DNA of 46,189 nt from an uncultured Pseudomonadales bacterium. Its GTDB lineage: Bacteria; Patescibacteriota; Microgenomatia; UBA1400; PJMF01. The DNA lies in NCBI GenBank assembly GCA_964449995.1, contig CAYVBW010000003.1, positions 1-46,189 on the forward strand, given 5' to 3'. The first letter of the stretch is position 1. Every line of letters begins with the position of its first letter. The notes below the pieces were generated by a model, which did no database searches, was not told the DNA's origin, and worked only from the letters and a program-made list of their open reading frames with translations. Positions 815 to 44,713 of this stretch are shown one piece after another. The position numbers were made by a program, and so were the translations under genes.

Positions 815-876
815 GTGGTATTTAGTATTTGGTATTTGGTATAGCCCAGTGGTGAAACCAAATACTCAGTTTTAAA
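815..876 (+). repeat. Heptamer-array element, copy 1
   Basis: GTGGTATTTAGTATTTGGTATTTGGTATAGCCCAGTGGTGAAACCAAATACTCAGTTTTAAAA, 2 nt after the rplK stop. GTATTTGGT/ACCAAATAC can pair. Confidence 0.9.
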
Positions 877-921
877 AATTTTTGACAAGCTTAACATTAA
901 TCAGCAAACTAGGAATTATCT

Positions 922-1668
922 ATGGGATCAAAAAAAACAGTTAATGTAACATCTAATCCAGATGAAATTAAAGAAGTGGAAGTTGAAAAAAAAACTAAAG
1001 AAACAACTGATAAAGCTAAAGAAAAAACCGATAAGATTCAAAAAAAAGCAAAAGCTCAGCCTGCGAAGAATAAAACAAAAAAAGTCCGCAGTAAAAAATA
1101 TCAAGCAGTACGCTCTAAGATTGATCGTACTAAAACCTATGATCCATTTGCTGCAATCGAGTTAGCTAAAAAACTTTCATATACCAAATTTCCAGGAACT
1201 ATTACAGCCCACCTCACAGTCAAAGAACAAGGGTTAAGTCAAGAAATAACTCTACCCCACTCTACAGGGCAGACCAAAAAAATTGAGATTGCTTCGGAAG
1301 AAGTTATGAAAAAAATAGAAGCAGGAGAAATTAATTTTGATATTTTACTATCAACGCCTCAGTTCATGAGCAAACTCACTAAATACGCTCCAATTTTAGG
1401 ACCAAAAGGTTTAATGCCTAATCCTAAAAACGGAACTTTAACTCCAAACCCAGAACAAAAGAAAAAAGAGCTTGAGGCTGGAGCCACAGTTGTTAAAACT
1501 GAAAAAAAAGCTCCTTTAATGCATGTTGTCATTGGTAAAACTGATATGGATACCAAGCAATTAACTGAAAACCTACAAACCCTAATCACGGCCTTTAAAA
1601 ATAAACTGAGGAAAGTGACTCTATCAGCCACCATGAGCCCGGGGTTAAGGGTGGAGATGGAAGAGTAG
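922..1668 (+). CDS. rplA: 50S ribosomal protein L1 with a Lys-rich N-terminal extension
   Basis: LPHSTG, ILGPKGLMPNPKNGT and SATMSPG motifs. Confidence 0.95.
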   Translation: MGSKKTVNVTSNPDEIKEVEVEKKTKETTDKAKEKTDKIQKKAKAQPAKNKTKKVRSKKYQAVRSKIDRTKTYDPFAAIELAKKLSYTKFPGTITAHLTVKEQGLSQEITLPHSTGQTKKIEIASEEVMKKIEAGEINFDILLSTPQFMSKLTKYAPILGPKGLMPNPKNGTLTPNPEQKKKELEAGATVVKTEKKAPLMHVVIGKTDMDTKQLTENLQTLITAFKNKLRKVTLSATMSPGLRVEMEE

Positions 1669-1704
1669 TGGTAGCGTGGTATTTGGTATAGCCCAGTTGG
1701 TGGG
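1668..1704 (+). repeat. Heptamer-array element, copy 2 (no tail)
   Basis: GTGGTAGCGTGGTATTTGGTATAGCCCAGTTGGTGGG overlapping the rplA TAG. Confidence 0.85.
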
Positions 1705-1725
1705 CCAGATCAAGTCAACTCGAAA

Positions 1726-3564: not shown

Positions 3565-3587
3565 AAATTTTTTTATTAATGCTTGGT

Positions 3588-3596
3588 ATTATAGCA
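3588..3596 (-). promoter_or_regulatory. Putative extended -10 promoter of thrS
   Basis: TGCTATAAT on the minus strand, 23 nt upstream of the ATG. Confidence 0.55.
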
Positions 3597-3703
3597 AACA
3601 AGTAACAAGAGCGAGATAGGAGTAATCTCACTTATTCGTCTTTAATTTTTACTTTTGATAGCTTATGATATATTAAATTTTATTAAAAAATCACATAAAA
3701 ACT

Positions 3704-4480: not shown

Positions 4481-4518
4481 AACGAAAGCTTTAATTGAAA
4501 CCTTGAGCTCAACAAATC

Positions 4519-4547
4519 TTGCATTTCTAATTTCTTTCTCCTATAAT
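4519..4547 (+). promoter_or_regulatory. Putative sigma70 promoter of rplJL
   Basis: TTGCAT-N17-TATAAT directly upstream of the L10 leader. Confidence 0.65.
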
Positions 4548-4559
4548 AAAACGGTCTGT

Positions 4560-4680
4560 TTCCTAAGACAGCGTGGATTTTGGATAACAAGCCAACTGTA
4601 AATATCCAAAATTTAAAAACCGCGCCGAGGAGAAAATTTAAAATCACCTTTGGTGGTTAACCCTTTCCCCTCAGTTTTAG
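4560..4680 (+). promoter_or_regulatory. L10 leader (rplJ autoregulatory RNA)
   Basis: CTAAGACAGCGTGG...TTTAAAAACCGCGCCGAGG matches the L10-leader kink-turn pattern, with an internal 10-bp hairpin ATTTTGGATA/TATCCAAAAT. Upstream of rplJ; boundaries approximate. Confidence 0.75.
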
Positions 4681-4685
4681 AATCA

Positions 4686-4761
4686 TGGTATGTGGTATTT
4701 GGTATTTGGTATGTGGTATGTGGTATAGCCCGGTGGTGAGATGAGGCGACTCAGTTTTTAA
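4686..4761 (+). repeat. Heptamer-array element, copy 3 (in the rplJ 5' leader)
   Basis: About 6 TGGTAT(T/G) units + AGCCCGGTGGTG + ACTCAGTTTTTAA. Confidence 0.9.
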
Positions 4762-4805
4762 CTACTAAAGATTTTTTTAAACATTAAACATTAGAGCATC
4801 AAATT

Positions 4806-5318
4806 ATGCCAAGCAAAAATAACCAACAACAGGTAGAACTAATCAAAGAAAAACTAGGCAAAGCAAAGTCAGTAACAATCATAGATTACTCAGGAACTGA
4901 TGCTGACGATCAAGTCAAGCTAAGGTCAATGATTAAAAAAGCCCAGGGTGAGATGCTGGTTACTAAAAATACTTTAATAAATTTAGCAGTCAGCGATCCA
5001 TCACTTGAGGATTCTTTAACCGGAATGAATGCTTTAGTTTTTTCTTATCAAGATGCTGTTAGTGCTTTAAAAGAAGTGTTTGAGTTTAAAAAGGAAGAGG
5101 AAAAGCTTGAGATTAAGCAAGGCATTATGCTTGAAGACGGGAAGATAAAAATACTAAGCTCTGATGAAGTGGAACAATTAAGCAAGCTGCCAAATAAAGA
5201 AGAGCTTATGGTGATGATGATTCAACGCCTACAAGGACCTGCTTATGGCTTAGTGAATGTACTCAATGCCGGACCCAGAAATCTGGTTTATGCCTTAAAA
5301 GCGATTGCTGATAATTAG
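4806..5318 (+). CDS. rplJ: 50S ribosomal protein L10
   Basis: DYSG, VTKNTL, LSKLPNKEEL motifs; precedes rplL. Confidence 0.97.
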   Translation: MPSKNNQQQVELIKEKLGKAKSVTIIDYSGTDADDQVKLRSMIKKAQGEMLVTKNTLINLAVSDPSLEDSLTGMNALVFSYQDAVSALKEVFEFKKEEEKLEIKQGIMLEDGKIKILSSDEVEQLSKLPNKEELMVMMIQRLQGPAYGLVNVLNAGPRNLVYALKAIADN

Positions 5319-5393
5319 TATTTGGTAGCGTGGTATTTGGTATTTAGTATTTGGTATAACCGAGGGGTAAATCAATATAAATCAGTTTTTAAA
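5316..5393 (+). repeat. Heptamer-array element, copy 4
   Basis: TAGTATTTGGTAGCGTGGTATTTGGTATTTAGTATTTGGTATAACCGAGGGGT...TCAGTTTTTAAA; the first unit is the rplJ TAG. Confidence 0.85.
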
Positions 5394-5459
5394 TTCTAAA
5401 AAGCGAAGCGACATTAAACATTAACAATTAAAAACTATCAATTTTAGGAGGCAAATATT

Positions 5460-5909: not shown

Positions 5910-5936
5910 TTCATCATTTAACTAAAACGGCACAAC

Positions 5937-5965
5937 ATAAACCACCCATTCACGGGTGGTTTATT
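5937..5965 (+). terminator. Intrinsic terminator after rplL
   Basis: ATAAACCACCC-ATTCAC-GGGTGGTTTAT, an 11-bp hairpin. Confidence 0.75.
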
Positions 5966-6151
5966 GTAAATTCTTTTTAGTATTAACTACTTCCCTTTTC
6001 TTTTATTAATACAAAACTGCAAGCAGTGCTTTTAAGTCATCTGGTAGGACCACTAGGTCTATCAAAAACCAGTTTTTTTACTAAAGGCGATATATTCTTC
6101 AAAACTATGCTCCAAAAGAGACCAACACTTTTACTAAAAGTGAGAAAAATT

Positions 6152-6290
6152 AAATAAATTCGCAAATTAGTATTAATAATAAATATGAGCTCATTTCTAA
6201 GAGGTTTCACCCCGAGCGCGTTTTGTCTTGTCCTCCCGCTCAGCGGGAGAATCAGGCCTGCTCCCCTGTCCCACTAAGCGGGACTGTGTA
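6152..6290. repeat. Second intergenic repeat family, copy A (palindrome-rich)
   Basis: 6152-6230 is colinear with 46108-46183. It is followed by hairpins CTCCCGC-TCA-GCGGGAG and GTCCCAC-TAA-GCGGGAC. Confidence 0.8.
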
Positions 6291-6398
6291 TTTAATCAGA
6301 ATTTAATTGCTTGTTCTTAACTAAAAAAACTAATTATTCAATGTTTTTTCTAATAATTTTTTTATATCTTTTTTATTCTCCCCCAACTATTGGTTTAC

Positions 6399-6471: not shown

Positions 6472-6564
6472 CTTTTTACTACTTTTTAAATTTACCATAA
6501 ATTACCCAAAAGTATCTTTTATATTCAACTTATAATTGATTTATCAATCTTTTTTTTATTATCT

Positions 6565-7059: not shown

Positions 7060-7079
7060 TGGCTAATTAAACAGAATTT

Positions 7080-9667: not shown

Positions 9668-11170
9668 ATGAAAATACCTCAAGAAATTATTGATCGACTT
9701 AATAATAAAAGCATTTGTATCTTAGGGCTTGGTCGAGAAGGATTATCTACTTACCGGTTATTGCGCAAAATTCTACCAGATTTTAACCTGACACTGGCCG
9801 ATGCTAGCCCGCACGAAAAGCTAAGTGATGATATTAAGAAACTAATCTCAACTGATGACAACATCAAGCTAAGCTTAGAAGAAAATTATCTTGAAAACAT
9901 TGAGCAATACGAGATTATTTTCAAAACCCCAGGCATTCCGCTGTCAACTCCACAGATACAACAAGCGCTTAAAACAAACACCCAAATTAGCTCTAATCTT
10001 CAACTATTTTTAGAAATAATTGAGTTATTTAAGCAAGAAAATGATCCATATGATGTCAAGCTTAATAACTACAAATCAGGTTTATTAAAACCAATCACTA
10101 TTGGTGTCACCGGTACCAAAGGTAAAAGCACCACTGCTGCTGTTATACATCAAGTATTGGCCCACAACAACTCTGAATCTATACTGGTGGGAAATATTGG
10201 CCAACCTGCCCTTGATTATATTGATCAAATCACAGCAAAAACCAAAATAGTAATTGAATTATCCTCACACCAATTGGATCAATTAACAATCAGTCCTGAT
10301 ATTGCAATTATCCAAGAAGTTAAGTCTGAACATTTAGACTACTTTCCCGACCAAAAAGCTTATGTTAACTCTAAAAAAAGTATCACTAGGTATCAAAAGG
10401 CTAATCAGTATGTAATATATAATCAAAAATGGAAGCTAACTAGTGAAATTGCTACTCTCTCCCCTGGTAAAAAGCTTTATTTTCAATTAAACCAACCAAC
10501 AAATGAATATAAAAATGATATATTAGTTTATCTTAAATCATATTACTTAACCTATAATGATATTAACAAAGAAATTCCTGTAATCAAAACAGATGACGTC
10601 CCTATTTTAGGAAAACATAATCTATTAAATGTCGCTCCAGCTATCATCGTTGGCAAAATGTTTGGATTAAGTTTCCAGCAAATTGCTGCTGGGATTAAAA
10701 AGTTCAAACCATTACCTCACCGTTTAGAAAAAATTGCCACTAAAAACGGCATTTCTTATATCAATGACTCGATGGCAACCATGCCAGACGCCGCAATTTC
10801 GGCTCTTTCTTGTTTTGATGAACAACCAATCATCTTACTGGCCGGCGGGCATGAGCGACAACAAGACTTTCAACCCTTTGCTGAAAAAATTATTCAATCA
10901 AAAGTTAAAGCCATTGCTCTATTCCCGCCAAACGGACAACGGTTGTGGAATGAAATTATCCAAAAACAACAAAACTTAAAAATTAAAAACAAAATCCAAC
11001 ACAAAATAGTACACTCCATGGAAGAAGCTTTGGAGTTTGCCCAACAGCACGCTCAAGCCGGTGATGTAGTTTTGCTAGCTCCGGGTGCTGCCAGCTTTGG
11101 GGTATTTAAAAACTATGCTGACAGAGGGGAACAATTTCGGGATGCTGTGTCCGGTGTCTGTGGTATTTAG
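9668..11170 (+). CDS. murD: MurD-type ligase, probably MurD2 (L-Glu-adding) given the adjacent murL
   Basis: LGLGREG, KTPGI, GVTGTKGKSTT, GNIG, ELSSHQL, HLDY, LPHRLE, NDSMAT, LLAPGAASFG.FKNYADRG motifs. Confidence 0.92.
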   Translation: MKIPQEIIDRLNNKSICILGLGREGLSTYRLLRKILPDFNLTLADASPHEKLSDDIKKLISTDDNIKLSLEENYLENIEQYEIIFKTPGIPLSTPQIQQALKTNTQISSNLQLFLEIIELFKQENDPYDVKLNNYKSGLLKPITIGVTGTKGKSTTAAVIHQVLAHNNSESILVGNIGQPALDYIDQITAKTKIVIELSSHQLDQLTISPDIAIIQEVKSEHLDYFPDQKAYVNSKKSITRYQKANQYVIYNQKWKLTSEIATLSPGKKLYFQLNQPTNEYKNDILVYLKSYYLTYNDINKEIPVIKTDDVPILGKHNLLNVAPAIIVGKMFGLSFQQIAAGIKKFKPLPHRLEKIATKNGISYINDSMATMPDAAISALSCFDEQPIILLAGGHERQQDFQPFAEKIIQSKVKAIALFPPNGQRLWNEIIQKQQNLKIKNKIQHKIVHSMEEALEFAQQHAQAGDVVLLAPGAASFGVFKNYADRGEQFRDAVSGVCGI

Positions 11171-11187
11171 TATTTGGTATTTGGTAT
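11160..11187 (+). repeat. Heptamer-array element, copy 5 (array only; supplies the murD C-terminus and stop)
   Basis: GTGGTATTTAGTATTTGGTATTTGGTAT; murD ends TGT GGT ATT TAG. Confidence 0.85.
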
Positions 11188-11211
11188 CGGCTGCTGCAAA
11201 CCAGACAATTT

Positions 11212-12223: not shown

Positions 12224-12346
12224 GTGGTATTTGTATCGTGGTATTTGGTATGTGGTATTTGGTATTTGGTATTTGGTATGGCCGAGTGGTGGATTAAAGC
12301 AGTTAAGTTTTAAATTTTAAATAGCTTCGATACCAAATACCTACCA
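12224..12346 (+). repeat. Heptamer-array element, copy 6, plus a downstream inverted arm
   Basis: About 8 units + GGCCGAGTGGTGG...AGTTTTAAA (to 12314). ATACCAAATACCTACCA at 12330-12346 is complementary to the array. Confidence 0.88.
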
Positions 12347-13806: not shown

Positions 13807-13852
13807 TATTTGGTATAGCCCAGTGGTGGGTCAAAACAACTCAGTTTTTAAA
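13807..13852 (+). repeat. Heptamer-array element, copy 7 (short array)
   Basis: TATTTGGTATAGCCCAGTGGTGGGTCAAAACAACTCAGTTTTTAAA, 4 nt after a TAG stop. Confidence 0.88.
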
Positions 13853-16149: not shown

Positions 16150-16223
16150 CTTTAGATTAGTAGTTTATAAAAGTATTACTGCAACCTCTAGTATATCAAA
16201 TACCATGTATAAAATACTAGAGA

Positions 16224-24754: not shown

Positions 24755-24833
24755 TGGTATTTGGTATGCGGTGTTTGTGGTATTTGGTATTTAGTATTTG
24801 GTATGTGGTATACGAGATACTCAGTTTTTAAAA
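24755..24833 (+). repeat. Heptamer-array element, copy 8 (central core missing)
   Basis: About 8 TGGTAT(T/G)-like units joined to ...ATACTCAGTTTTTAAA, in the divergent leuS intergenic region. Confidence 0.88.
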
Positions 24834-26548: not shown

Positions 26549-26618
26549 GTGGTATTTGGTATTTGGTATTTGGTATTTGGTATGGCCCGGTGGTGATACC
26601 AAGTGCTCAATTTTAAAA
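26549..26618 (+). repeat. Heptamer-array element, copy 9
   Basis: 5 TGGTATT units + GGCCCGGTGGTGATACCAAGTGCTCAATTTTAAAA. Confidence 0.9.
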
Positions 26619-26631
26619 GTGAATAACAAAC

Positions 26632-27651
26632 ATGTCTAATATAAAAAGAATCATCAAGATAAGCCTTATCTTAGCACTGCTGGTTTTCATAAGCAGTTTG
26701 TTGAATACAGTTAGAGCCCAAACTATAGATGCTCCTAATGAGGATTTTTCTATCTCGGTACATCCTCCTGTGTCATACGTTTATGTTAAGCCTTCAGAAA
26801 AACTGCGTCATACTTTAATAGTCAAAAACACAGGCCGAAGACCGCTAAGCATCTCCACAAATGTCACAGACTTTAAACCTGACGGCAAAACTGGACAACC
26901 AGTGATTCAGCCAGGAAGAATTTTTAATAAAGAAGCCAATCCTGACTTATCTTTTGGAGAACCTTTCACTCTTCAGCCAGGACGCAGTCACAGCGTGAAT
27001 CTGCAGTTTGATGTCGCCGAAGTGGTGCAAGAAAAAGAATATCCTCTGGCTATTCTAATCAATGCCCACAGTCTAAGCCCAAAATCTAGTGATCAAGATG
27101 GAAGAATCCAAAACGCCACTAAAGCGCAAGTTGCCGGAACCGTAGTTAGTAACTTAATCGTTTATATTGGTCACGACGAAGACAACCAAGGAAAAATAGA
27201 AATTGCACAATTGAACCTACCCCTCCTGATTGATAGTTTTAGCGGAATTAGTTTTGATATTTTGGCACAAAACTCCGGCTCTACTGCTACCCTGATTCAA
27301 GGAAAGGCCGTAATTGAAAATATTTTTCAACAAACTATAAGTGAGTATATTTTTTACCCTGATTTTGTGCTAGCTGAGTCAACTCGCATGGTAAGAGGGG
27401 TTGAGTTTTCGCCTGACCTCCTCGATAATGACGGCTTATTAGATCCAAAAAAAGTGGATAATCTTTTTACTCGATTTGTTTACAAACCACCAATTTTAAT
27501 TGGTGTTTACAATGTTCATTTAGAACTTTCTGGCTTGCAACAAACTGAAACTGTTATTGCGCTACCTTTTTCAATCATAGCCGCTGTTGGTGTAGGGTTT
27601 TTGCTATACTGGAGTCATAAACAAGTTTTAAAAGCAACGAAGAACAACTGA
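26632..27651 (+). CDS. Secreted two-Ig-domain protein with a C-terminal TM (DUF916/DUF3324-like)
   Basis: Signal peptide; ISVHPP...V.NTG...DF...FTLQPG...V...Y pattern; second domain N.G; C-terminal hydrophobic anchor with a basic tail. Confidence 0.65.
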   Translation: MSNIKRIIKISLILALLVFISSLLNTVRAQTIDAPNEDFSISVHPPVSYVYVKPSEKLRHTLIVKNTGRRPLSISTNVTDFKPDGKTGQPVIQPGRIFNKEANPDLSFGEPFTLQPGRSHSVNLQFDVAEVVQEKEYPLAILINAHSLSPKSSDQDGRIQNATKAQVAGTVVSNLIVYIGHDEDNQGKIEIAQLNLPLLIDSFSGISFDILAQNSGSTATLIQGKAVIENIFQQTISEYIFYPDFVLAESTRMVRGVEFSPDLLDNDGLLDPKKVDNLFTRFVYKPPILIGVYNVHLELSGLQQTETVIALPFSIIAAVGVGFLLYWSHKQVLKATKNN

Positions 27652-30460: not shown

Positions 30461-30516
30461 GTGGTATTTAGTATTTGGTATAGCCCGGTGGTGATGCCAA
30501 GTACTCAGTTTTAAAA
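30461..30516 (+). repeat. Heptamer-array element, copy 10
   Basis: GTGGTATTTAGTATTTGGTATAGCCCGGTGGTGATGCCAAGTACTCAGTTTTAAAA. Confidence 0.9.
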
Positions 30517-30529
30517 GTGAGTAACAACT

Positions 30530-32578
30530 ATGTCTAATATAAAAAGAATCATCAGGGTAAGTTTTTTCTTAGCACTGCTGGTTATCACAGGCAGTTTGTT
30601 GAATACAGCTAGAGCCCAAAGCTCTGAAGCCTACCCTACTCCCCCTCCCAGTGAAAAAGAAGTCTTTCTTAGCGCTGTTATGCCTGATATCGTGCCTCCA
30701 ACAGCCCCAATTCTTATTGCTCCTGAGGACAATGAGCTGGTGAGCACTAATCGCCCCCAGTTTGTGTGGTTGGAGTCAACTGACAATGTGGCCATGTCTC
30801 ATTATAAACTCACTATTGATGGAGAGCTTATTTTGGACAACTTAGCCACCCCAGGTACTTATGAGCTGTACAACCTATCTTACAACTCCAGTCTGGGATA
30901 CTATTATTTAGATATTAAGTTTGACCTAGACCAAGGCCAGCATACTTGGAAAATTACAGCGGTTGATGCCGTGGACTTAACCAATGACTCTGTCACATGG
31001 AGTTTTACTGTAGACTCTATTCCGCCTCATTTTATCTTAACCCAAATTGGTGATGTTGAGGTCTCTATCTCTGCCCAAGATCAGTCTACAATTCCCGAAG
31101 AGCCAATAGAAATCTCTGTCAACGAACCAATGCTAGAAGCTTATGGAGAGGCTAACAGCACGGTACAGCTGACAGCTATTATTCCAGGACAAGATGATTA
31201 TTATTCTGAAACATTAATTGATGGCAGAGGCAACTGGAACCACCGACTACCTATTCTACCAAGAGATACTGTCATTACTCTTAACTTTGTTATTATCGAT
31301 TTAGCTCGCCATATTAGAGTTTTAGAAGGTGTTAAAATCATTATTCCTATCGATGTGATCACTATCCCCTTACCCACAGCAGTAACCACTGTTGAGCCTT
31401 CACCCACCCCTCATCCAGATATAATAGAACCTGAACCACCCAAACCACCCGTTGAGATTCCCTATAGACCTCCTAAAGAAATTGTTTATGAGATTATCCG
31501 CTGGTTAACTCCCACTCCTATTTGGCGTATTGCTAGTAGAGATCCTTTTCAAACCTGGCTGCAGTTTGTTGGTCCTTGGTTGGTTTTAATCATAGTGGGT
31601 TGGCCCGCAGCTCTTGCCACTCTACTTCTAGCCAGAAAGTTTGGCCTACTGATCTCCGGCAAACACTTAATCAAAATTTGGCAGGCTTTGGGCGTTATTC
31701 CCTATGAAGATAGAGAGGGATGGGTCTTTGACAGTAGATTTACTCAATGGTTGGAAAAAGAGTCCAAAAAAATATGGTTGGCTGAAACAAATTTAATCAA
31801 TCTTGGAATTCCTTTTGCCCAAATCATTGCTATTAGTCAACCCTCAGACCCAAGCTTTCCACCTTTTTATCAAACAGTATTAACAGACCAACAGGGCTTG
31901 TATTTGCCACTAAAGCTACCCCTAAATAAATACCGCCTATCAGTACAAGCTCAGGATTACCGCTACCCCACCTTACAACAAAGACCTGAGGACATAGAAT
32001 TGATAGATTTTTATAAAGCTGAAGAACAAGAGGTTAAAATAGACCAGACTAGTTTATCGCTGCAAATACCGGTTGATACAGTTGATACTACAGAGAGCTA
32101 TACTAGAGGGAAAACTAGCTGGCTTAGAAAAATACAGTTGTGGTTGGCTAAAATTATTGTATTTAACAACCCAATTGTATTGGTCAACATTATTTTAGCC
32201 AGTGCAGTGATCTTATTCTGGCCCAGTGTAGTTAATCTCGCAGCCCTGACTCTATACTTAATTCTGGGACTGTATTATCTGTTTAAACAGCCCTTGTTTG
32301 GCAATATTCGGGGTCTAGTGATTGATAAAGATGGCAATTATGTACAAAACGCCATGATAAGGCTTATTAAACAAGATGGATCTAAGCAAACCTTTACAGC
32401 ACTAACCAATAGTCAAGGAGAGTTCTGCTACTACTTTAAGAGTGGTCGCTTCAGACTAACAGCCAGCAAGCCCCAATATAAGCAAGTTGTTGATGCTGAA
32501 ACTAAAGATGAGGTTCAGGTTGACGGGTGGTGGCATCAAAAACGGCTGGTGGTGGTATCTGGTATCCATGGTATTTAG
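30530..32578 (+). CDS. Surface/membrane protein: Ig-like domains, Pro-rich linker, TMs and carboxypeptidase-regulatory-like domains
   Basis: Signal peptide; PTAPILIAP...PQFVW..STDN...G.HTWKITAVD; PSPTP..PEPPKPP; GLVIDKDGNYVQNAMI...TNSQGEF...LTASKPQY. Confidence 0.78.
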   Translation: MSNIKRIIRVSFFLALLVITGSLLNTARAQSSEAYPTPPPSEKEVFLSAVMPDIVPPTAPILIAPEDNELVSTNRPQFVWLESTDNVAMSHYKLTIDGELILDNLATPGTYELYNLSYNSSLGYYYLDIKFDLDQGQHTWKITAVDAVDLTNDSVTWSFTVDSIPPHFILTQIGDVEVSISAQDQSTIPEEPIEISVNEPMLEAYGEANSTVQLTAIIPGQDDYYSETLIDGRGNWNHRLPILPRDTVITLNFVIIDLARHIRVLEGVKIIIPIDVITIPLPTAVTTVEPSPTPHPDIIEPEPPKPPVEIPYRPPKEIVYEIIRWLTPTPIWRIASRDPFQTWLQFVGPWLVLIIVGWPAALATLLLARKFGLLISGKHLIKIWQALGVIPYEDREGWVFDSRFTQWLEKESKKIWLAETNLINLGIPFAQIIAISQPSDPSFPPFYQTVLTDQQGLYLPLKLPLNKYRLSVQAQDYRYPTLQQRPEDIELIDFYKAEEQEVKIDQTSLSLQIPVDTVDTTESYTRGKTSWLRKIQLWLAKIIVFNNPIVLVNIILASAVILFWPSVVNLAALTLYLILGLYYLFKQPLFGNIRGLVIDKDGNYVQNAMIRLIKQDGSKQTFTALTNSQGEFCYYFKSGRFRLTASKPQYKQVVDAETKDEVQVDGWWHQKRLVVVSGIHGI

Positions 32579-32644
32579 TGTTTGGTATCCGTGGTATTTG
32601 GTATTTGGTGTTTGGTGTTTGGTATGGCCCGGTGGTGGGTCAAA
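32552..32644 (+). repeat. Heptamer-array element, copy 11 (encodes the last residues and stop of 30530..32578)
   Basis: About 10 degenerate units + GGCCCGGTGGTGGGTCAAA; the CDS ends GTA TCT GGT ATC CAT GGT ATT TAG. Confidence 0.88.
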
Positions 32645-33198
32645 GCGGAGTGGTAAAAAACGCTCCACAAACTGTACCCTACGAACCGCTCCCAAACTTA
32701 CACTAACCCAGCTAATCAACTCAGCAGCAAATCTACCCTCTCCTCCAAATCATATCTCCAACCCACTGCCCTACTTTTTTGTCTTTTCCCGCTAGTTGGA
32801 ACAAGATACCCGAGGATTTAACCAAAAATCAATCACAACTTAAGGATCCTATAACAAAGTAGTTTTTTCATTCTATAACTGCCAATTCAAAATTTTCTTA
32901 AACCTGCCCTGTTTTGTACATTTTGCAGCCTGATTCGCTAAATCTTTGCCATTTTTTTAATATTATAAGGATGCAATAATAAGTAAGCTTATTCTTGCAT
33001 AATTGCCGATTTATTATTGCAACCTCTGGAGTGGTAATTACCGCAAATTGACCATTGTGCTTATAAAGTGATCAATATGATATTTAATATCAAGTGAATT
33101 ACTTGAGGTAAAGTACACCCGAAAACGATTTTTACTGACTTTACATCAGAAATAGAATTTTGAATTCGGGAATTGTAATGCGAAGCGTGTTTTAAAAA

Positions 33199-37600: not shown

Positions 37601-40600
37601 TAGTGCTCCTACTTGGACAGATCCATCTACTTTGGGTACTAACTATTGGCAGAGAAATAGTAATACACTCTCTCCTGCTACTATTACTGATGCTATTAGT
37701 GTTGGCAGTACCACTCCCTCTAGTGCTCTCTTTTATGTACCAGGTACTACTAATAATGATGCTTACTTTAATCTAGGTACTGGTAATGTAGGGATAGGTA
37801 CCACTACTCCTGGCTCTGCTCTCTCTGTTGTGGGTGCTATCAGAAGCAGTAGCCTGTCAGCAGGAGGAATAGTTAAAGCAGCTGCTACTACTGGAGAGTT
37901 AGAAATAGCAACAGCCGGTACTGATTATGAAGTACCACTTACATTTGAAAGTGGTTTAACTAGAAGTGCCAATACAGTCAGACTAGGTGGAGCTCTCACC
38001 CAAGCTACTGATATCCCTCTTTCAGGTCATGATCTTACCTTTTCAGGAGCTAGCGGTAACATCGGGATTGGTACTACCACTCCTGCCAACAGACTTTCTA
38101 TTACTGGAGATGCTGATATTACTGGCAACCTTGGCATCGGCACCACCACTCCAGGATATAAACTAGACATTGCAGGTACTGGTACTCTCTTTAGAATAGC
38201 CTCAGGTGGTACTGACCTTTTTACTGTTACTGATTCACTTATTACTTCCAACCTACCTCATACTTTTACCTCCAGCGGGGATGTGAGTATGGCCTACAAC
38301 CTCTACTTTACTAATCAGTTGTCTAGCAAGATTGAAAGCTATGGTCCTTTTAGTATTATTGCTGGAGAGCCACATGAATCTAATAACCTTACTCTAAAAA
38401 CTTTTAATGCTGGTAGATTGCTAGTAGAGAGTTCCAATTTCTGGGTGGATTATAACAATGTTGGGATAGGTACTACCACTCCATCAGAGAAACTACATGT
38501 AGAGGCGGGAGGTATAAGACTAGGTAGTACTTCAGATGCTAATAATGTTTTGGATACTGCAGCTGCTTCTGGAGCTCCATCAGGAAACTTATATTGGGGT
38601 AATAGACAACTAGTAGATAGTGCTAATATTGGTAACTTTGGAGTAGCTAGTGTTACCAACAGTGATGGTACTTTAACTATCTCTCCTACTACTGGAGATG
38701 TCATAGCTTCTCTTAATTTAGCTAATGCTAATACTTGGACAGGAGCACAAACTTTTAATGATTTGACAATTGCAGATACTAATGTGTCTTTAACTGGAGC
38801 TTCTACCAACTTTGCTTCTACTGGCAATATCTCTTTTAATACTAATCAGTTGTTTATTAATCAAAGTAGTGGAAATGTGGGGATTGGGACGACGAGTCCA
38901 GAACGAAAATTAGAAATTACTGGAGGATCATCTGACGGCATTAAAATCAGTGGCTCATCAGTAATGGAAACTTACTTTACTGCCGAAAGATGGACATTAA
39001 GAAATATATACACTGGAGCAGGATGGGCAAGACCACTGATGCAATTTGAAGATGCAGCTGCTTCTTCATATTTCCAAATTGGAGGATACGGTAGCGGTCA
39101 ATCATTTTACTATGGTTATATAGGGAATGCTTATAATGATGCAGTACTTAAATGGAAAACCGATGGAAGTTTTGGGGTCAACCTTAGTAGTACTACTCAT
39201 CCCAGCCATCCATTTCAGGTAGGAGCAAATAGCTTAGTTGTTAACTCTTCAAATAACGTCGGCATCGGCCTCACCAACCCCAGCAGAGAACTTCAAGTCA
39301 ATGGTGGTATCAGAGCCAGTGACTACTATTCTTCTGATAACACTGCTGGTGCTACTTCTACTGTTTCAGGACTGGTATTTAAAAATGGACTTTATACTTC
39401 AGGAAGCATTAGTGGAGTTGATGATTATGACCACTGGAAGATTGCTGCTGATGGCACTGCTGGCACTGAAGAAGTTGGTTCTGGCGACACAGTCACTATT
39501 ACTGGTCATACTGCCATCACTGCCACTAGAGCAACCAGGAATATTAGCATATCAGTTACTGATGGTTCTATTACTAATACACAACTTGAGTACAATACTG
39601 GCCAACACTTAACCACTACCAGCTCACCCACCTTTTCTAAACTCACTTTATCCAGTACTGACAATAATACTATTGATCTATCTGGCAATACTGCCGGGAT
39701 TACTTTCTCTAATGCTTTAGGTGGTACAAACCAAATTATCACAGCTGGCAATTCTCATCTTGCTTTAATGCCACATGGAACAGGGAATGTGGGAGTGGGG
39801 ACAACGAGTCCAGGCACAGACCTTGATGTAGTTGGTACTGGTCGCTTCTCATCTACTTTAACTGCGTCTAACGGACTTACTTTAACCACAGGTGCTCTAA
39901 ATCTCACTTCAACCTCAGGAGCATTATCGCTGTCAGGACTATCTGCTTCCTCCATCTCAACCGGAGCCAACAACTTAACTATTACTGCCGGCAACTTTAA
40001 CACTACCTCAACTGGTATTAACTCAACTGCTATTGGTGCCACTACTCGCTCAACCGGTGCTTTTACTACCCTTGCAGCCAACTCCACAGTGACTTTTTCT
40101 GATATTAGTGGTGCAACAGAAACAGATGCCCTTATGATTAACAGTTCTGGGGTGTTGAGTAAGCGAACCTTAAGCGCTGTCGCTTTTGATGGCTTTACTG
40201 AAGTTGATCCCACTTGGGAAGGAGATGCTAACCTCACCAGCGATATTGGCAGAACCGGCAACGTCGGAATTGGCACTACCACTCCCAACGCGAAACTAGA
40301 GATTAGTGGTGACATCCGTTTGAGAGGTGATCTATGGTTTAGAGATGCTCATCGATATTTAGGTACTCAAACTAATCATAATCTTTACTTTAGAACTAAC
40401 AACGCCAATAGAATGACTATCTTAAGTGGGGGGGATGTGGGGATAGGAATAACAACTCCATCAGAAAAACTACAAGTATCAGGTAATATCTGGACCCACG
40501 ATAGTTGGATTGGAGGACAGACACTTTATGTAGGATCGGGAATGGCAGCTTCCGGACAAAATGGCCCCCAAGATAAATTCTATGGCAATGCAGAACTTAA

Positions 40601-43600
40601 TTTTAGCACAAGCACAGGTAAAAAAATCAACTTTCTTGATGGCTGGAACAAAGATATTTATGTCACCACTTCACTACTTAGAATTAGAAATCATGAATCC
40701 GGGGCAAGTAATCAATATATAGAGATACTCTCAGACACTGGGTCAAATGCTCGTATTGATTTAGGTAGTTTCAATGACGATGGTGATGTAATCACGCCAC
40801 AATTATCTGTAAGAACTGGCACAGGCAATGTGGGTATTAGCACCACTAATCCTATTTCTATCCTTGATATAACCCAAAGCGGAAACACATCTCAAGTTCA
40901 TATAGGAGCAGCTAATACAGGCATGTTCCTTTCAAGTGGACTGGATTCTCAATTTACTATAACTGGTGGGGCAAAAAGACTTTCTAATGGCGACTGGGAG
41001 GCAAGAGCTACTACCGCTTCACATATTGGCTCCTTCGATGGAAATATTTCATTCGTTAAAGCAACTGGATTAACTGTAGGCAATACTTTTTCTTGGGATG
41101 AAACTATGAGGATCCACCATAGTGGTAATGTTGGTATTGGCACTACTAATCCTCGCTCAATATTAAACATTAAAGGGGGAGGGCTTGGTATTGGTTCTGG
41201 CGATGCTATTAGCACTACTGATGGAGCAAGAAGAAGCATTCAAATCGCCTCAGATACCTCATACGGAGGAACGTATGACGACCATTCAGGATATTTAATG
41301 TATTCAACAATGCCTGGTGGGTGGGGAACAGCGCAGCTTCACTTTGCTAGATCCACCAACTGGGGAACCTACGACTCATCTCCAACTCTTAGTTTATCTG
41401 GGCAAAACGTCGGGATTGGAACTACTGATCCATTTACTAATCTTCATGTAGACGGGGGTACTTATATTGATGGTGATCTAGGCTTGGGTAAAAACCAACA
41501 TCATGCCTTGGGCAAAAACCCAAGTATGGTGCCCAACTGGAGTTTTGAAGTTCAAAATACTCCAGGTAGCTATCCAGATGGATGGGAATCGTGGGGAGGT
41601 ACTGGCTCATATTCAGCTTACAGATCTGCTACTTGGAGAAGGCATGGAGACTATAGCTTTGCATTACAGGCAAATAACTCTAGTAGCCATGTAAATGCTA
41701 GATCTGCATGTATTCCTGTCACGGGTAGCACCACATACCAACATGCCTTAAGCATCAGGTCTTCAGCTAGCACCAATAAGGGTCTAGTCTGGAGGATGAC
41801 GGAATTTAAAGATGCCAGGTGTACTTCTGGATCTTACATTAGAGATAGAGAGTTAATAGCTTTTGATGCTGGCGTTAGTACCAGCTGGACACAGCACACC
41901 AACACAAGTTCCTCAACTCACTCAAATACCAGAGGAGTAAAAATTCACATTCATAATTACTTCCCCAATGTAGCAGCTACCTTTTATATTGATAGGATTG
42001 TGATGAGAGAATCAGCCTATAATAATACCGACCTAGCAGAAATGGTTCCAGCAGCAAATGAAAATATTACTCAAGCAGATATTGTAACTATTGATAAAGA
42101 AACAGGAAAAGTTAAACTAGCTACAAAACCCCATGACCCTAGCCTTTTTGGCATAGTGTCTACTGAACCCGCAATCGTTCTTCATAGCGAAAATGAAGAT
42201 ATGCCTAAAGCTACCGTTGCTCTAGCAGGACGTGTGCCAGTTAAGGTTTCAACTAGTAACGGTCAAATTAGTTCAGGTGATCCCATTACCTCTTCTAATC
42301 TTCCAGGAATTGGAACTAAGGCTACTCAAGCGGGAACCATTATTGGGAATGCCATGGAAAGCACCCAGGAATGGAATGAGGATGTTTGTCCGCCCGTTTC
42401 ATCTCTTGGAGATATAGAATGGCCAAGGGATGATGGCCTTAATCCAGAAAAACCATGTTTTAGGCTACCAGATGGAACCTATGTTGGAAAAGTAGTAGTT
42501 TTCGTCAATACCTCCTGGAGTGACTCTCAAGTATATTTAACAGATACTGGTGGTATTAGAATTATTGGTGAAGTAAAAGATGGAATTGAAAGATATCAAT
42601 TACAAGATGAGGATGGCAAAATTATTCACAGAGTTGGGGCTTTTAGCGAAGCTGCGATTGCCAGATTAAGAGCTGGTTTAGTTGAAACCAGTAAAGTGGT
42701 TGCTGAAAACGCTGATGTAGCCAAAGCTAACATTAACAACCTCACAGCCCAAACTTTTCAATCCACTTCAGGCACCATCAATAAGCTCACTACCAACACC
42801 CTAAAATCAGCCAAAGCCACCATTGAAGAGCTCACTACCCAGCGAGTAAAAATTGGCAACTTCTTCCTAACAGAAAAAGATGGCAAACTCCAAATTCAAG
42901 ATAAAGATCAACAAACTGTAGCCACCATTGATCAAGACGGCAACACTCAACTCACTGGTAATTTAACTGCTCAAGGAACAATAAGTAGTCCTGAATCCTC
43001 CACTACTTCAAGCACCACCAGTACCAAACTGGCAGAGCTCATTGCTGATGAAATTCAGGCTGGAAAGATCACAGTTGATAACTTAACCACCGAAGGGTTA
43101 ACTGCCACCGGCAGTTCTAAACTAGCCCAGCTAATGGCAGAAAATGTTGAGCTTGAAACTTTGTTGGCTCAAGAAGTTCAAACCTCCAGCCTGCAAGCCG
43201 AAGCAATTCAAACCACAGACTTAACTGCTACCGGCAGCAGTAGGCTGGCTCAACTAATGTCCGATGATGTTGAAACTGAAGATTTAACTGCACAAAATGC
43301 ACAAATTGCACAAGCTGATATTTCTAATGCGGATATCAACACTGCTCGTATTAATGAACTAGAAATAAGCCAAGAGCTAAGAGCCCAAGCTTCTCGCTTT
43401 GAACAACTTGAATCCAAGCTGGCTGACTTTGAAAGAATCCAAGCTGACACAGCCCACATCATCAGCGGTCACATCGACCAAGCCACCTTTAATCAAGCAG
43501 ACTTTGGCAGCGCTACCTTTGACACTGCTACTATCAGCGGTACTTTATATGCAGATGTTATTGCCGGCTTTGAGGAAAAAGTGGCCCAAGCTTTCCGCCA

Positions 43601-44594
43601 ACCTAGTTTATTGGGTAATTTATTGGGCAACTCTGCCTCAGTAAACGGCAACGAAGTGGTGGCCATTGTTGATAGCGCCGGCTATGAAGCTACTGGCAGC
43701 AGCGACTTGCGCAAAACTGTAGCAGAATTAAACTTATCTGACGACGATGTGGTTATTGCTCCAGCTGCAGCTTATATTAATCAATATTTAGAAGTTAACG
43801 GCACGGCTTACGTTAACGACAGCCTAGCAGTCAACAATTACATTGTGACTGGCGATGGGTTAAAAATGGCTGCTAACGTAGGCATGGCCTCTATTGATTA
43901 TGTTAGTAAAACCGATCCTAGCTCCTCTACTTTATACATCCAGCCTTCAGGTATGGGTAGAATCAACTTAATGGCAGGAGTGATGTCAATCGATGCCACT
44001 GGTCAAGTTACTATAGTCGGAGATATGAGAATTATCGGAGATGCCAGTGTTGATGGCAATTTATCTGCCAACACCCTACTCACCAACTTGATTGAAGCTA
44101 ACGATTACGACCAGCCCACTCAAATCAAGCTAGGTGCTTACACTGACGAATACGGTAATGTGATTTACGGAGAGGTAGCCGGCGATGCGACTGAGTCTGC
44201 CCAGATCAAACACTCTCGACTGGAAATTATTGATGAAAGTGGCTCCCCTGTTGCTACTATCAGCGCTACTGGTCGAGCCGAGTTTGCAGACGGATTAGGC
44301 ATCGGGCAGGAAGACTTATCTGAAAGCGACACCACAGAAACGATCACTGACAAAACTTCAGGTCGCGCTCAGCTAAAATCAGGAGAAACCCATATCGTAA
44401 TCCGCTCTAGCAAAATCACCCGCAACAGCCAGATCTTTGTCACGCCTTTGGGATCAACAAATAATCAGGTACTTTATATAAAATCTCAAGTGGCGAATGA
44501 TCCAACAACTCAGGATGTGGAAGGATTGTTTGTGGTAGGTTTTGACAGACCAGCAATTTCAGATGTCATGTTTAACTGGTGGATTGTCAATTAG
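34632..44594 (+). CDS. Giant 3320-aa protein: integrase SAM-like core-binding domain, TM, tail-fibre-like GNVGIGTT-repeat shaft, CBM-like domain, peptidase G2-like domain and beta/coiled stalk
   Basis: Uninterrupted ORF (GTG 34632; alternative ATG 34926). SQSTIKNYRSDISQF...KSSTIKRKFSSVIQF..W; TM at aa ~335-356; FQGRL domain; 17 GxxGIGTTxP-type motifs; DLAE...GIVSTEP...VALAGRVPVKV; ends FNWWIVN. Confidence 0.88.
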   Translation: MTAQQRYISSVLTAFSTFLENLDPKKLTNDSDRSKKDLKIESQKLLIKFLNWKKQFTSWSPEEIEQFVADNKLETKNEPAAVTILTQFVNDYPPLQTNMFLQEFLLALQKENCSQSTIKNYRSDISQFIQSSAAKTIDSLLTKTKLDAFSLEQKQKGLKSSTIKRKFSSVIQFGLWLKNEGLLSDPPQWLEVGYVYELEEKKGEKNQKEEQEKIVAVARVKKKIQPEEATQLAKKAPSKQKAIPAKAITVQPGKRNLLNLKDKKTKSGQEVISTTNTNSTKPSALRNQEKRAQVKSGLSQLSTKISDDIKEKFNQTFNQAKQTASQAKQATALNILPYINLAIIILFFLGLGSLGYKQLITNAPFQYAFPSTPTPPGRTLSFQGRLTDPGQNPITQDSDMVFILYDALTAGTTLWTSNTCTIEPDQDGIFTVGLGDTTECGPAIPDGVFTENPNVWLEVAVEGETLAPRQPIRTVAYAINAETLQGYPLAADTGATNNTVLAMNSSGEVLLGETNPKIEATGTSLTLEAKSLLLNATGGTADIQLTATNEISLISSTGLVNLNNLLYVEDSTGGIGIGTTEPGTAKLAVMGGNMGIGTTTPSEKLHVEGGGIRLGSTSDANNVLDTAAASGAPSGNLYWGNRQLVDSANIGNFGVASVTNSDGTLTISPTTGDVIASLNLANANTWTGAQTFNDLTIADTNVSLTGASTNFASTGNISFNTNQLFINQSSGNVGVGTTGPNFKLDITVSGDGDGVNIKNPTSDGTIESAGFQLKNNQGGDGSFFKLYSENTGVSALNSLLYIKNSVGSISFLANTGSSIGFGIGNTAANADDLVIASTGNVGIGTTEPKVKLEIAGDTGFTWFDSDSRAKANATTGGSFAVFTPSVFGVDGTHNSGLAIDGSYSSLTSTINIKAFGVYTGSYRSNLAFHTTNGTSINEAMRINHLGNVGISTTTPGEILDVVGNVQFSGALMPSGNAGVSSYVLTSAGTGSAPTWTDPSTLGTNYWQRNSNTLSPATITDAISVGSTTPSSALFYVPGTTNNDAYFNLGTGNVGIGTTTPGSALSVVGAIRSSSLSAGGIVKAAATTGELEIATAGTDYEVPLTFESGLTRSANTVRLGGALTQATDIPLSGHDLTFSGASGNIGIGTTTPANRLSITGDADITGNLGIGTTTPGYKLDIAGTGTLFRIASGGTDLFTVTDSLITSNLPHTFTSSGDVSMAYNLYFTNQLSSKIESYGPFSIIAGEPHESNNLTLKTFNAGRLLVESSNFWVDYNNVGIGTTTPSEKLHVEAGGIRLGSTSDANNVLDTAAASGAPSGNLYWGNRQLVDSANIGNFGVASVTNSDGTLTISPTTGDVIASLNLANANTWTGAQTFNDLTIADTNVSLTGASTNFASTGNISFNTNQLFINQSSGNVGIGTTSPERKLEITGGSSDGIKISGSSVMETYFTAERWTLRNIYTGAGWARPLMQFEDAAASSYFQIGGYGSGQSFYYGYIGNAYNDAVLKWKTDGSFGVNLSSTTHPSHPFQVGANSLVVNSSNNVGIGLTNPSRELQVNGGIRASDYYSSDNTAGATSTVSGLVFKNGLYTSGSISGVDDYDHWKIAADGTAGTEEVGSGDTVTITGHTAITATRATRNISISVTDGSITNTQLEYNTGQHLTTTSSPTFSKLTLSSTDNNTIDLSGNTAGITFSNALGGTNQIITAGNSHLALMPHGTGNVGVGTTSPGTDLDVVGTGRFSSTLTASNGLTLTTGALNLTSTSGALSLSGLSASSISTGANNLTITAGNFNTTSTGINSTAIGATTRSTGAFTTLAANSTVTFSDISGATETDALMINSSGVLSKRTLSAVAFDGFTEVDPTWEGDANLTSDIGRTGNVGIGTTTPNAKLEISGDIRLRGDLWFRDAHRYLGTQTNHNLYFRTNNANRMTILSGGDVGIGITTPSEKLQVSGNIWTHDSWIGGQTLYVGSGMAASGQNGPQDKFYGNAELNFSTSTGKKINFLDGWNKDIYVTTSLLRIRNHESGASNQYIEILSDTGSNARIDLGSFNDDGDVITPQLSVRTGTGNVGISTTNPISILDITQSGNTSQVHIGAANTGMFLSSGLDSQFTITGGAKRLSNGDWEARATTASHIGSFDGNISFVKATGLTVGNTFSWDETMRIHHSGNVGIGTTNPRSILNIKGGGLGIGSGDAISTTDGARRSIQIASDTSYGGTYDDHSGYLMYSTMPGGWGTAQLHFARSTNWGTYDSSPTLSLSGQNVGIGTTDPFTNLHVDGGTYIDGDLGLGKNQHHALGKNPSMVPNWSFEVQNTPGSYPDGWESWGGTGSYSAYRSATWRRHGDYSFALQANNSSSHVNARSACIPVTGSTTYQHALSIRSSASTNKGLVWRMTEFKDARCTSGSYIRDRELIAFDAGVSTSWTQHTNTSSSTHSNTRGVKIHIHNYFPNVAATFYIDRIVMRESAYNNTDLAEMVPAANENITQADIVTIDKETGKVKLATKPHDPSLFGIVSTEPAIVLHSENEDMPKATVALAGRVPVKVSTSNGQISSGDPITSSNLPGIGTKATQAGTIIGNAMESTQEWNEDVCPPVSSLGDIEWPRDDGLNPEKPCFRLPDGTYVGKVVVFVNTSWSDSQVYLTDTGGIRIIGEVKDGIERYQLQDEDGKIIHRVGAFSEAAIARLRAGLVETSKVVAENADVAKANINNLTAQTFQSTSGTINKLTTNTLKSAKATIEELTTQRVKIGNFFLTEKDGKLQIQDKDQQTVATIDQDGNTQLTGNLTAQGTISSPESSTTSSTTSTKLAELIADEIQAGKITVDNLTTEGLTATGSSKLAQLMAENVELETLLAQEVQTSSLQAEAIQTTDLTATGSSRLAQLMSDDVETEDLTAQNAQIAQADISNADINTARINELEISQELRAQASRFEQLESKLADFERIQADTAHIISGHIDQATFNQADFGSATFDTATISGTLYADVIAGFEEKVAQAFRQPSLLGNLLGNSASVNGNEVVAIVDSAGYEATGSSDLRKTVAELNLSDDDVVIAPAAAYINQYLEVNGTAYVNDSLAVNNYIVTGDGLKMAANVGMASIDYVSKTDPSSSTLYIQPSGMGRINLMAGVMSIDATGQVTIVGDMRIIGDASVDGNLSANTLLTNLIEANDYDQPTQIKLGAYTDEYGNVIYGEVAGDATESAQIKHSRLEIIDESGSPVATISATGRAEFADGLGIGQEDLSESDTTETITDKTSGRAQLKSGETHIVIRSSKITRNSQIFVTPLGSTNNQVLYIKSQVANDPTTQDVEGLFVVGFDRPAISDVMFNWWIVN
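36414..36833 (+). repeat. 420-bp intragenic direct repeat, copy 1
   Basis: Matches 38463-38882 with about 4 visible mismatches; offset 2049 nt (in frame). Confidence 0.95.
38463..38882 (+). repeat. 420-bp intragenic direct repeat, copy 2
   Basis: See copy 1. Both ends fall in GIGTT-type motifs. Confidence 0.95.
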
Positions 44595-44621
44595 TGGTAT
44601 TTGGTATCTGGTATTTGGCAT
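44594..44621 (+). repeat. Heptamer-array element, copy 12 (array only)
   Basis: GTGGTATTTGGTATCTGGTATTTGGCAT overlapping the giant gene TAG. Confidence 0.85.
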
Positions 44622-44662
44622 GTTTTTATGGGCTTGTTAGTAATTTCAAGCTCTATGGTAGA

Positions 44663-44713
44663 TTTCACCACCGGGCTATACCAAATAACAGATACCAAAT
44701 ACCACAGTACCAC
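44663..44713 (-). repeat. Heptamer-array element, copy 13 (minus strand)
   Basis: Reverse complement GTGGTACTGTGGTATTTGGTATCTGTTATTTGGTATAGCCCGGTGGTGAAA, 3 nt after the Phd gene stop. Confidence 0.9.

Follow-up and report, generated by a model that had tools for sequence, protein, structure and literature searches.

A clustered TGGTATT heptamer repeat with a fixed core in the gene spacers of a small Patescibacteriota genome

The 46,189-nucleotide (nt) stretch of DNA analysed here, called the window throughout, is the whole of contig C3 (CAYVBW010000003.1) in the draft genome GCA_964449995.1 of an uncultured bacterium of the Patescibacteriota, and its gene spacers hold repeated copies of a composite element, a variable (TGGTATT)n array followed by a fixed core. 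The copies form one family that is concentrated in a small part of the genome, keeps a uniform orientation within each region and is absent from the relatives searched; a sister species carries a single homologous hairpin, and other heptamer arrays are found in the same order. The explanation that we favor, with a little less than even confidence, is that these copies form a young non-autonomous repeat family, derived from a hairpin resembling a terminator and accompanied by a lineage-wide habit of 7-base tandem duplication.

Anatomy of the element

Read along its own strand, the element consists of the (TGGTATT)n array of variable length, the core TGGTATRGCCCRGTGGTG of 17-18 bases, ~10 fast-diverging bases that pair back onto either the array or the core, and a T-run. 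A search of the window with the 18-base TGGTATRGCCCRGTGGTG, allowing at most 2 mismatches, gave 8 matches, at 837, 4721, 12274, 13811, 26578, 30476 and 32620 on the plus strand and at 44666-44683 on the minus strand, while none of 100 dinucleotide-preserving shuffles of the window yielded any match. Tandem Repeats Finder delimited 10 period-7 TGGTATT arrays of 3.4 to 8.6 units each, starting at 816, 4686, 5318, 11161, 12225, 24750, 26550, 32569, 44595 and 44678. The heptamers are thus arranged head to tail, in variable number and dispersed through non-coding DNA, as in STRR- and TAACTGA-like arrays.

When 28 distinct copies were aligned, 20 of them belonging to this genome and 8 to near strains, columns 1-30, which comprise the array and the core, proved to be 90-100% conserved and the next ~14 columns after the core variable. 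A tail, (C)TCAGTTTTTAA, was present in roughly half of these copies at a constant distance of 10-11 bases from the core. In the composite consensus proposed in an earlier note on this DNA, the tail, ACTCAGTTTTTAA, is only partly conserved. In many copies the variable stretch is the reverse complement of 1.5 heptamers (ATACCAARTRC), which produces an 11-base-pair (bp) stem with the core as its loop and with its end at the T-run; in other copies its pairing partner is the GCCC or the GGTG of the core. The inverted 1.5-unit array closes ~10 of the 28 aligned copies and is missing from the remainder, and longer inverted arrays were seen at 12224-12342, 44594-44713, C1:9704-9847 and C1:97434-97563.

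The modules can also multiply, the tail being present three times in tandem on contig C36 and a core-like motif three times in a near strain. Subfamilies were recognised by likeness between copies in different regions (4723 with C16:15604; 13813 and 32622 with C16:4854), which argues that the spread was not merely a matter of duplication next door.

Genome-wide distribution

The draft genome comprises 804,871 bases in 39 contigs with 36% G+C (completeness 95.4%, contamination 0.26%); a rough call of open reading frames gives this 0.8-Mb genome a coding share of 90%, and a 16S gene could not be located in it. Its small size and its gene content suggest a bacterium of the candidate-phyla-radiation type. 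A search of the genome with a profile derived from 20 copies gave 27 matches at E<0.01, namely 11 on C3, 9 on C16, 2 on C20, 2 on C36, 1 on C23 and 2 on C1, so that the conservation of the core extends genome-wide; the core itself recurs at least 20 times. The matches are strongly clustered, since 24 of the 27 fall on C3, C16, C20 and C36, which together hold 84,021 of the 804,871 bases (10.4% of the genome). In the curated set of 25 copies used for the clustering statistic, 23 lie on these four contigs (binomial p = 7e-21), and ~700 kb of the genome are without any copy. We considered and rejected a chimeric bin in which the copy-bearing contigs came from another organism, as each of 13 marker genes of the window occurs once in the bin and the copy-bearing contigs do not stand out in tetranucleotide composition. 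The clustering is therefore not an artefact of binning.

All copy counts from the assembly are lower bounds, because a 100-N scaffold gap in C20 (4665-4764) conceals a full copy that was revealed by metagenome contig L069. In practical terms, the arrays break assemblies, the copy lost in this gap being one example, and they could serve as strain markers. The metagenome runs in which the population was found numbered 19, every one of sludge DNA. Contigs C36, C20 and C3 join end to end in this order with overlaps of 55 and 30 bases, and the C20-C3 junction is spanned by bridging metagenome contigs.

Relatives, near strains and the heptamer habit

The relatives searched numbered 40, with 3 from the genus itself, another 21 from the family and 16 from the order. 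A 25-mer of the element (at most 2 mismatches) had 16 matches in the studied genome and none in the 40 relatives. Of shorter core fragments, the 9-mer GCCCRGTGG is enriched in relatives, but its matches fall in coding DNA, and those of a core 11-mer likewise. Scans of public genomes and metagenomes recovered the element only from its own population, at 99-100% identity, and from a near strain, at 90-97% identity; a bin labelled Micrarchaeota contains two contigs of this near strain. Between strains both the unit numbers and the variable stretch differ, and at the TopA orthologue the strains carry variable stretches of two distinct types.

The closest trace outside the species was found in the sister species G002, where the orthologous L11-L1 spacer contains one array-less hairpin with the same apical GCCCAGTGG and an AU-rich stem. 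This hairpin aligns with the copy at 815 of the window, which is the likely progenitor site; the relatives G001 and G003 have no homologous hairpin in this spacer. Comparison of orthologous loci also showed that copy-bearing spacers are short in G002, at ~20 nt between the dUTPase and Tmk genes (93 nt with a copy in the studied genome) and ~12 nt between Tmk and RecR (111 nt with a copy). These observations suggest that the family may have been born from the L11-L1 hairpin after the split from G002; alternatively, the G002 hairpin could be the last relic of an older family.

The order as a whole has a habit of forming heptamer arrays, and the comparison with cyanobacterial STRR sequences drawn in the earlier note proved apt in this respect. 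A loose search with the doubled unit recovered arrays of TTTGGGA, TTTGGAA, TTTTGGT, AATTGGT and TTTGGCA, and period-7 arrays with diverse units number 3-18 per 12-20-kb stretch sampled from the relatives G029, G040, G039 and G027; G029 alone has 6 to 18 per stretch with many unit types, the other three having fewer. Such arrays can lie within genes. An 861-residue Wzy_C/TPR gene of G029 (L178:9611-12196) stays open through at least 6 arrays, which encode low-complexity loops such as WDLGFGI repeats, and topA of the studied genome (C16:669-696) carries a 3-unit array in frame, oriented like the remaining copies on C16, at a site where the TopA proteins of the three same-genus relatives have 4-5 fewer residues. 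The literature searched contained no description of an STRR-like heptamer habit for this group.

Two further features of these spacers were recorded. A conserved leader-like sequence (TTCCAGCGTCT…GATGCG.TA.GAGAAC) precedes L1 in G001, G002 and G003 and is missing from the studied genome, where the repeat sits (812-922). The NusG-L11 spacer of G002 contains a tandemly duplicated 33-base sequence (GGCGTTCGAGACTCAGCATCCACCAGTTACT…).

Copies in the window

Genes of the window named by Pfam are those for NusG, L11, L1, ThrRS, L10, L7/L12, a Mur ligase, MreB, NDK, ComEC, ComEA, LeuRS, a protein of 3320 amino acids and toxin-antitoxin proteins. The element sites are as follows.

815..878, plus strand: copy in the L11-L1 spacer; 3.9 heptamers, core 837-854, inverted 1.5 heptamers and T-run; fold -14.7 kcal/mol
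1668..1725, plus strand: copy 3' of the L1 stop, occupying the spacer up to the convergent ThrRS stop; one-base core insertion, GCCCA/TGGGC stem, no T-run
4686..4761, plus strand: copy upstream of L10; 5.9 heptamers, core 4721-4738, tail
5316..5393, plus strand: copy between L10 and L7/L12, with the L10 stop TAG as its first unit; core degenerate, tail kept; profile E 2.2e-5
11160..11211, plus strand: array-only relative with a differing core, CGGCTGCTGCAAACCAG; the Mur ligase stop lies within the array
12224..12342, plus strand: copy in the divergent spacer between MreB (minus) and a PEGA gene (plus), with 2 nt between the start codon of MreB and the beginning of the array; core 12274-12291, short inverted array 12328-12342
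13807..13852, plus strand: minimal copy of 1.5 heptamers that follows the stop of the PEGA gene and precedes tRNA-Pro; core 13811-13828, with tail
24755..24833, plus strand: copy beside the start of LeuRS (minus) in a divergent spacer; 8.6 heptamers, core deleted, tail kept; profile E 0.0029
26549..26618, plus strand: hairpin copy with an 11-bp stem of array and inverted array, including 2 G-U pairs, then a T-run; -20.3 kcal/mol
30461..30516, plus strand: paralogue of the copy at 26549, carrying the core
32552..32668, plus strand: copy with the stop of the upstream gene inside its array (reading frame end 32578); core 32620-32637, then a second hairpin
44594..44618, plus strand: array only, without the TGGTATRGCCCRGTGGTG core, starting at the stop of the 3320-residue gene and facing the minus-strand copy
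44643..44713, minus strand: the sole minus-strand copy of the window, 3' of the stop of a Phd-like gene; core 44666-44683
16190..16223, minus strand: not a member; a separate 9-bp palindromic hairpin 3' of an M16 peptidase gene

All 13 copies listed in the earlier note exist, with the qualifications given above for 1668, 5316, 11160, 44594 and 24755. The degenerate copy that it added at 16190-16223 was dropped, this being an unrelated palindrome without any nhmmer match to the profile. A variant resembling the copy at 11160 occurs at C9:29431. The copies at 26549 and 30461 have a common downstream flank (26549-26700 and 30461-30600), and the genes that follow them, at 26632 and 30530, begin with the same codons, which points to a segmental duplication that carried the repeat along. 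Just before the copy at 4686 lies a weak L10-leader-like stretch (Rfam L10_leader, 4544-4689), which is below threshold (25.5 bits, E 3.5). The sole Pfam match of the 3320-residue open reading frame (34632-44594) is an N-terminal phage-integrase SAM-like domain (residues 100-181).

Orientation, gene borders and replication strand

The relation of the element to neighbouring genes was assessed in 26 curated copies, of which 14 lie behind the stop codon of a same-strand gene, 10 stand at the start codon of a gene on the opposite strand and 2 show neither arrangement. Along the element strand, the array is closely preceded by a coding-sequence border, with a gap of 0-17 nt in most copies (exceptions are 4686 with 205 nt, 30461 with 68 nt and 24755 with 23 nt). 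A stop codon falls inside the array in three copies, and the junction CCACC-ATG occurs three times. The proposal that the element is a signal acting at the 3' ends of genes finds no support as a general role, given the 10 of 26 copies at opposite-strand starts, most of which run antisense to the genes on both sides, and the lack of a consensus RNA structure described below.

Orientation is uniform per region, with the copies of C36-C20-C3 (Region I) pointing one way and those of C16 the other. Of the profile matches on C3, 10 are plus and 1 is minus; C16 has 9 copies, all of them minus, although their Pfam-identified neighbours (TopA, a nucleotidyltransferase, a glycosyltransferase, dUTPase, Tmk, RecR and CysRS) are plus-strand genes, so that 8 copies are antisense to both neighbours and 7 of the C16 copies stand between co-directional plus-strand genes. 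The earlier statement that a copy takes its strand from the gene beside it thus describes most window copies, but it fails at 12224 and 24755, which lie at the starts of the minus-strand MreB and LeuRS genes, and on C16.

The dnaA gene (C1:59.7-60.2 kb) coincides exactly with the sign change of GC skew, and GC skew at third codon positions (GC3 skew) splits leading from lagging genes cleanly on all large contigs. Measured in this way, 24 of the 27 profile matches have the G-rich strand of the element as the lagging strand, the exceptions being 44681, C23 and C1:97450. Counted by region, however, the rule holds by ~4 to 2 with few independent regions: Region I, C16, C1:83 kb and C9 fit, and C23 and C1:97-101 kb do not. 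In the near strain C16 joins C1 near position 2941, ~57 kb from dnaA, and one replichore may hold both Region I and C16, in which case the uniform strand would reflect one region only. The G-rich heptamer arrays of relatives show a weak bias of the same sign (54 vs 34 in G029; 11 vs 8 in a tally of the TTTGGNN type).

GC3 skew also places most genes of the window, C20 and C36, including L11-L1-L10-L7/L12, on the lagging strand, which is unusual for ribosomal-protein genes.

Origin and spread of the family

From this pattern we infer the direction of descent, a strand-specific mode of copying and whatever effect the copies have on expression. The starting unit would probably have been the terminator-like hairpin in the L11-L1 spacer, the 5' arm of which could have become a heptamer array through the 7-base tandem-duplication habit of the order. 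The copies now occupy ~30 spacers in one orientation within one origin-proximal region of ~100-150 kb, and the unit would have reached them by strand-specific copying, no element-encoded enzyme having been found; candidate routes are single-strand or template-switch events at the replication fork, or an enzyme acting in trans. Effects on the host would be incidental. In the sense direction the unit would act as a terminator-like hairpin with a U-run, and in the antisense direction as an A/C-rich, G-poor leader that the Shine-Dalgarno-poor starts of this lineage may tolerate.

A non-autonomous mobile unit, as the earlier note suggested, remains the best reading of an element that is species-specific, multi-copy and clustered, and whose spacers are short in relatives, with the reservation that no transposase of the families searched was found. 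Several observations weigh against it. The Y1/RAYT transposase family PF01797 had no match at E<=1 in the genome, and targeted family searches for reverse transcriptase and TnpB found none, in a genome that is 95% complete, whose proteins were not all scanned and in which DDE families were not searched; the two tyrosine recombinases, both on C4, are probably XerC and XerD. No target-site duplication is recognisable at the copy junctions. The population shows no empty/filled polymorphism, the arrays being identical at 9 of 9 orthologous sites in four metagenomes; contigs of these 4 runs break at arrays, and neither an empty site nor a length variant was seen. The distance of 0-17 nt between array and coding border in most copies does not fit simple random insertion, the stronger conservation of the core than of its 3' neighbour could mean function instead of homogenisation, and the strand rule is based on few independent regions.

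We also considered a broader scheme, which we regard as improbable, in which transposase-independent, replication-coupled copying in 7-base steps throughout the order seeds arrays at coding borders and, in frame, within genes; here it would have captured the L11-L1 terminator hairpin and spread it strand-specifically. Every copy would then have its sense strand as the lagging strand and would serve as a polar stop for transcription that runs head-on to replication forks.

Alternative explanations

Three functional readings, as terminator, chromosomal signal or translation leader, each explain part of the anatomy and each fail elsewhere. The first, which we consider unlikely although it is the strongest of the three, is that the element works as RNA in intrinsic termination or attenuation, perhaps under the control of a protein whose reading of the 7-nt periodic array would make the 5' arm of the hairpin available or block it; HutP and TRAP offer an analogy for a protein that reads a periodic RNA array. 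Consistent with termination, 14 of the 26 copies lie directly 3' of a same-strand stop, a run of at least four T is found within 14-50 nt of the core start in 21 of 26, and 8 of 26 pass a strict test for a hairpin followed by a T-run (dG<=-8, gap<=3). In the best of these (26549, 30461, 815 and C20:12341) a stem of 11-14 bp ends at, or 3 nt before, TTTT. The array stems keep G-U pairs (26580, 30478, C20:12341), which would be C-A on the opposite strand, and G001 has a canonical terminator 3' of L1 at the position of the copy. Folding is more favorable for the sense than for the antisense strand in 30 of 30 unique copies (mean -13.5 vs -7.6 kcal/mol), a weak argument because G+U richness alone favors sense-strand folding.

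Against termination as the role of the family, 10 of the 26 copies abut opposite-strand starts, and the 7 C16 copies that are antisense between co-directional genes are unable to end those transcripts. Likeness to a terminator is equal in the two classes, 5 of 14 after stops and 3 of 10 at opposite-strand starts. Every copy forms a hairpin of its own, with partners that differ between copies; RNAalifold on the 28 copies returned 3 trivial pairs and no covarying pair, and a consensus scan flagged no copy. The element is, moreover, absent from the 40 relatives. Rfam had no family on any copy of the window at gathering score or E<=5, and no match at E<=1 in stretches L052 and L053.

A derivation from tRNA was considered and dropped as well. 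The core resembles a tRNA D-arm (TRGCNNAGTGG), but ARAGORN and Rfam identified none of the copies as a tRNA, and in most of them the position of A14 in tRNAs is taken by G.

Less probable again is a DNA-level signal for replication or chromosome handling, that is, a polar protein-binding site with iteron-like heptamers and a core on one strand near the origin. The position of dnaA at the skew switch, the lagging G-rich strand in 24 of 27 matches and the junction of C16 to C1 ~57 kb from dnaA in the near strain are in line with such a signal, as are a primary sequence conserved without conserved structure and a core-to-tail spacing of 10-11 nt. It is opposed by the small number of independent regions, of which C23 and C1:97-101 kb do not fit and Region I and C16 may share a replichore. 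The weak bias of the arrays in relatives, the restriction of the element to one species, the wide variation in copy length and the ~700 kb without copies also argue against it. Integron attC sites, DNA-uptake sequences, Chi and parS were dropped on the grounds of copy number, clustering and housekeeping-gene flanks.

We think it improbable that the element is a translation leader, in which antisense (AAUACCA)n upstream of AUG would replace the Shine-Dalgarno site in the manner of the TAACTGA repeats of Beggiatoaceae. Arrays do end 0-16 nt before the starts of MreB, TopA, Tmk, RecR, a DUF134 gene, a glycosyltransferase and others, three of them through the CCACC-ATG junction, and relatives have A-rich, Shine-Dalgarno-poor leaders at the copy-bearing genes. 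The TAACTGA repeats directly precede start codons and overlap the expected ribosome-binding site (PMC4679880). Just 10 of the 26 copies are so arranged, however, the other 16 placing the G/U-rich strand after stops or elsewhere, and the core and tail are left unexplained.

Plain microsatellite slippage with flanks alike by chance is very improbable, since the core is kept across the genome: period 7 is the commonest tandem-repeat period (40 of 124 loci) and heptamer arrays are common in relatives, but 27 of those 40 loci are the one unit TGGTATT, and a core of 17-18 bases stands beside arrays 8 times in the window against none in 100 shuffles and at least 20 times in the genome.

Comparison with known repeats

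STRR sequences are short tandem heptamers dispersed in the non-coding DNA of heterocystous cyanobacteria, with several unit types per lineage. The TGGTATT element is similar to them as a dispersed heptamer, and the arrays of G029 and G040 look STRR-like; it differs in phylum, in the unit itself and in its fixed 17-base core and tail, which are not known as part of STRR.

The closest analogue found in the literature is the TAACTGA system, a set of directly repeated heptamers in marine Beggiatoaceae, cyanobacteria and Bacteroidetes (MacGregor 2015, PMC4679880). Both are spacer heptamers that also occur inside ribosomal-protein operons, lie flush with starts lacking a Shine-Dalgarno site, are found in some open reading frames and have no known transposase. 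The TAACTGA repeats have another unit, are mostly forward before starts and are without an attached conserved core, hairpin or T-run, whereas the orientation of the TGGTATT element is set by region and not by gene. The literature searched did not mention the doubled TGGTATT unit in either orientation, and the accessible parts of the literature on Patescibacteria and the candidate phyla radiation contained no description of such elements.

REP/BIME sequences (PMC2817692, PMC3116915) are extragenic, hairpin-forming, multi-copy, species-specific and often 3' of genes. The TGGTATT element shares these properties; it has ~27 copies rather than hundreds, no shared palindrome and no RAYT that could be found, and REP sequences are not known to have a tandem heptamer module. 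IS200/IS605-type single-strand elements (PATE) combine a strand bias relative to replication with a Y1 transposase or TnpB; here a bias is present (24 of 27 lagging) and neither enzyme was found. Intrinsic terminators also have a hairpin followed by a T-run; the element differs in its large loops (12-16 nt), AU-rich stems and many antisense copies, and in a conserved core sequence, for which a terminator has no need. MITEs and modular repeats such as Correia/NEMIS, RUP and pneumococcal BOX have in common a small size, no coding capacity, an intergenic position and an ability to terminate transcription, and BOX has a tandem module of variable number. A short inverted array, resembling the terminal inverted repeats of MITEs, ends about half of the copies (~10 of the 28 aligned ones) and is lacking in the others. 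Unlike MITEs, the element shows no visible target-site duplication and has no known parent insertion sequence, its inverted part is 1.5 units or missing, its orientation is uniform and its clustering is strict.

Genomes of ~0.8 Mb are thought to shed selfish and repetitive DNA. In this minimal genome a repeat has filled ~30 spacers, including those of ribosomal-protein and nucleotide-metabolism operons, and no transposase was found. The family therefore raises the questions of how DNA is copied in minimal cells, where a strand-specific, enzyme-poor mechanism is possible, why a 7-base step recurs in phyla as unrelated as those of cyanobacteria, Beggiatoaceae and now the present group, and how genes whose start codon abuts an array are translated.

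Other repeats in the assembly

A second repeat family (…GAGCTCATTTCT.AG.GGTTTCACCCC…) also breaks contigs, at 6150-6290 and 46145-46189 of the window and at the ends of C9, C17, C26 and C39. Its depth in the sludge metagenomes is ~60 times that of the genome (2433 at place 6182 vs ~38), so that the family must be common to many organisms. A third repeat (GGGGGTTCTAGGGGGATTCCCCCTAGTGGAGC…) is located at the ends of C1, C16 and C17 and at the start of C33, and a similar sequence lies in the L1-ThrRS spacer of G001.

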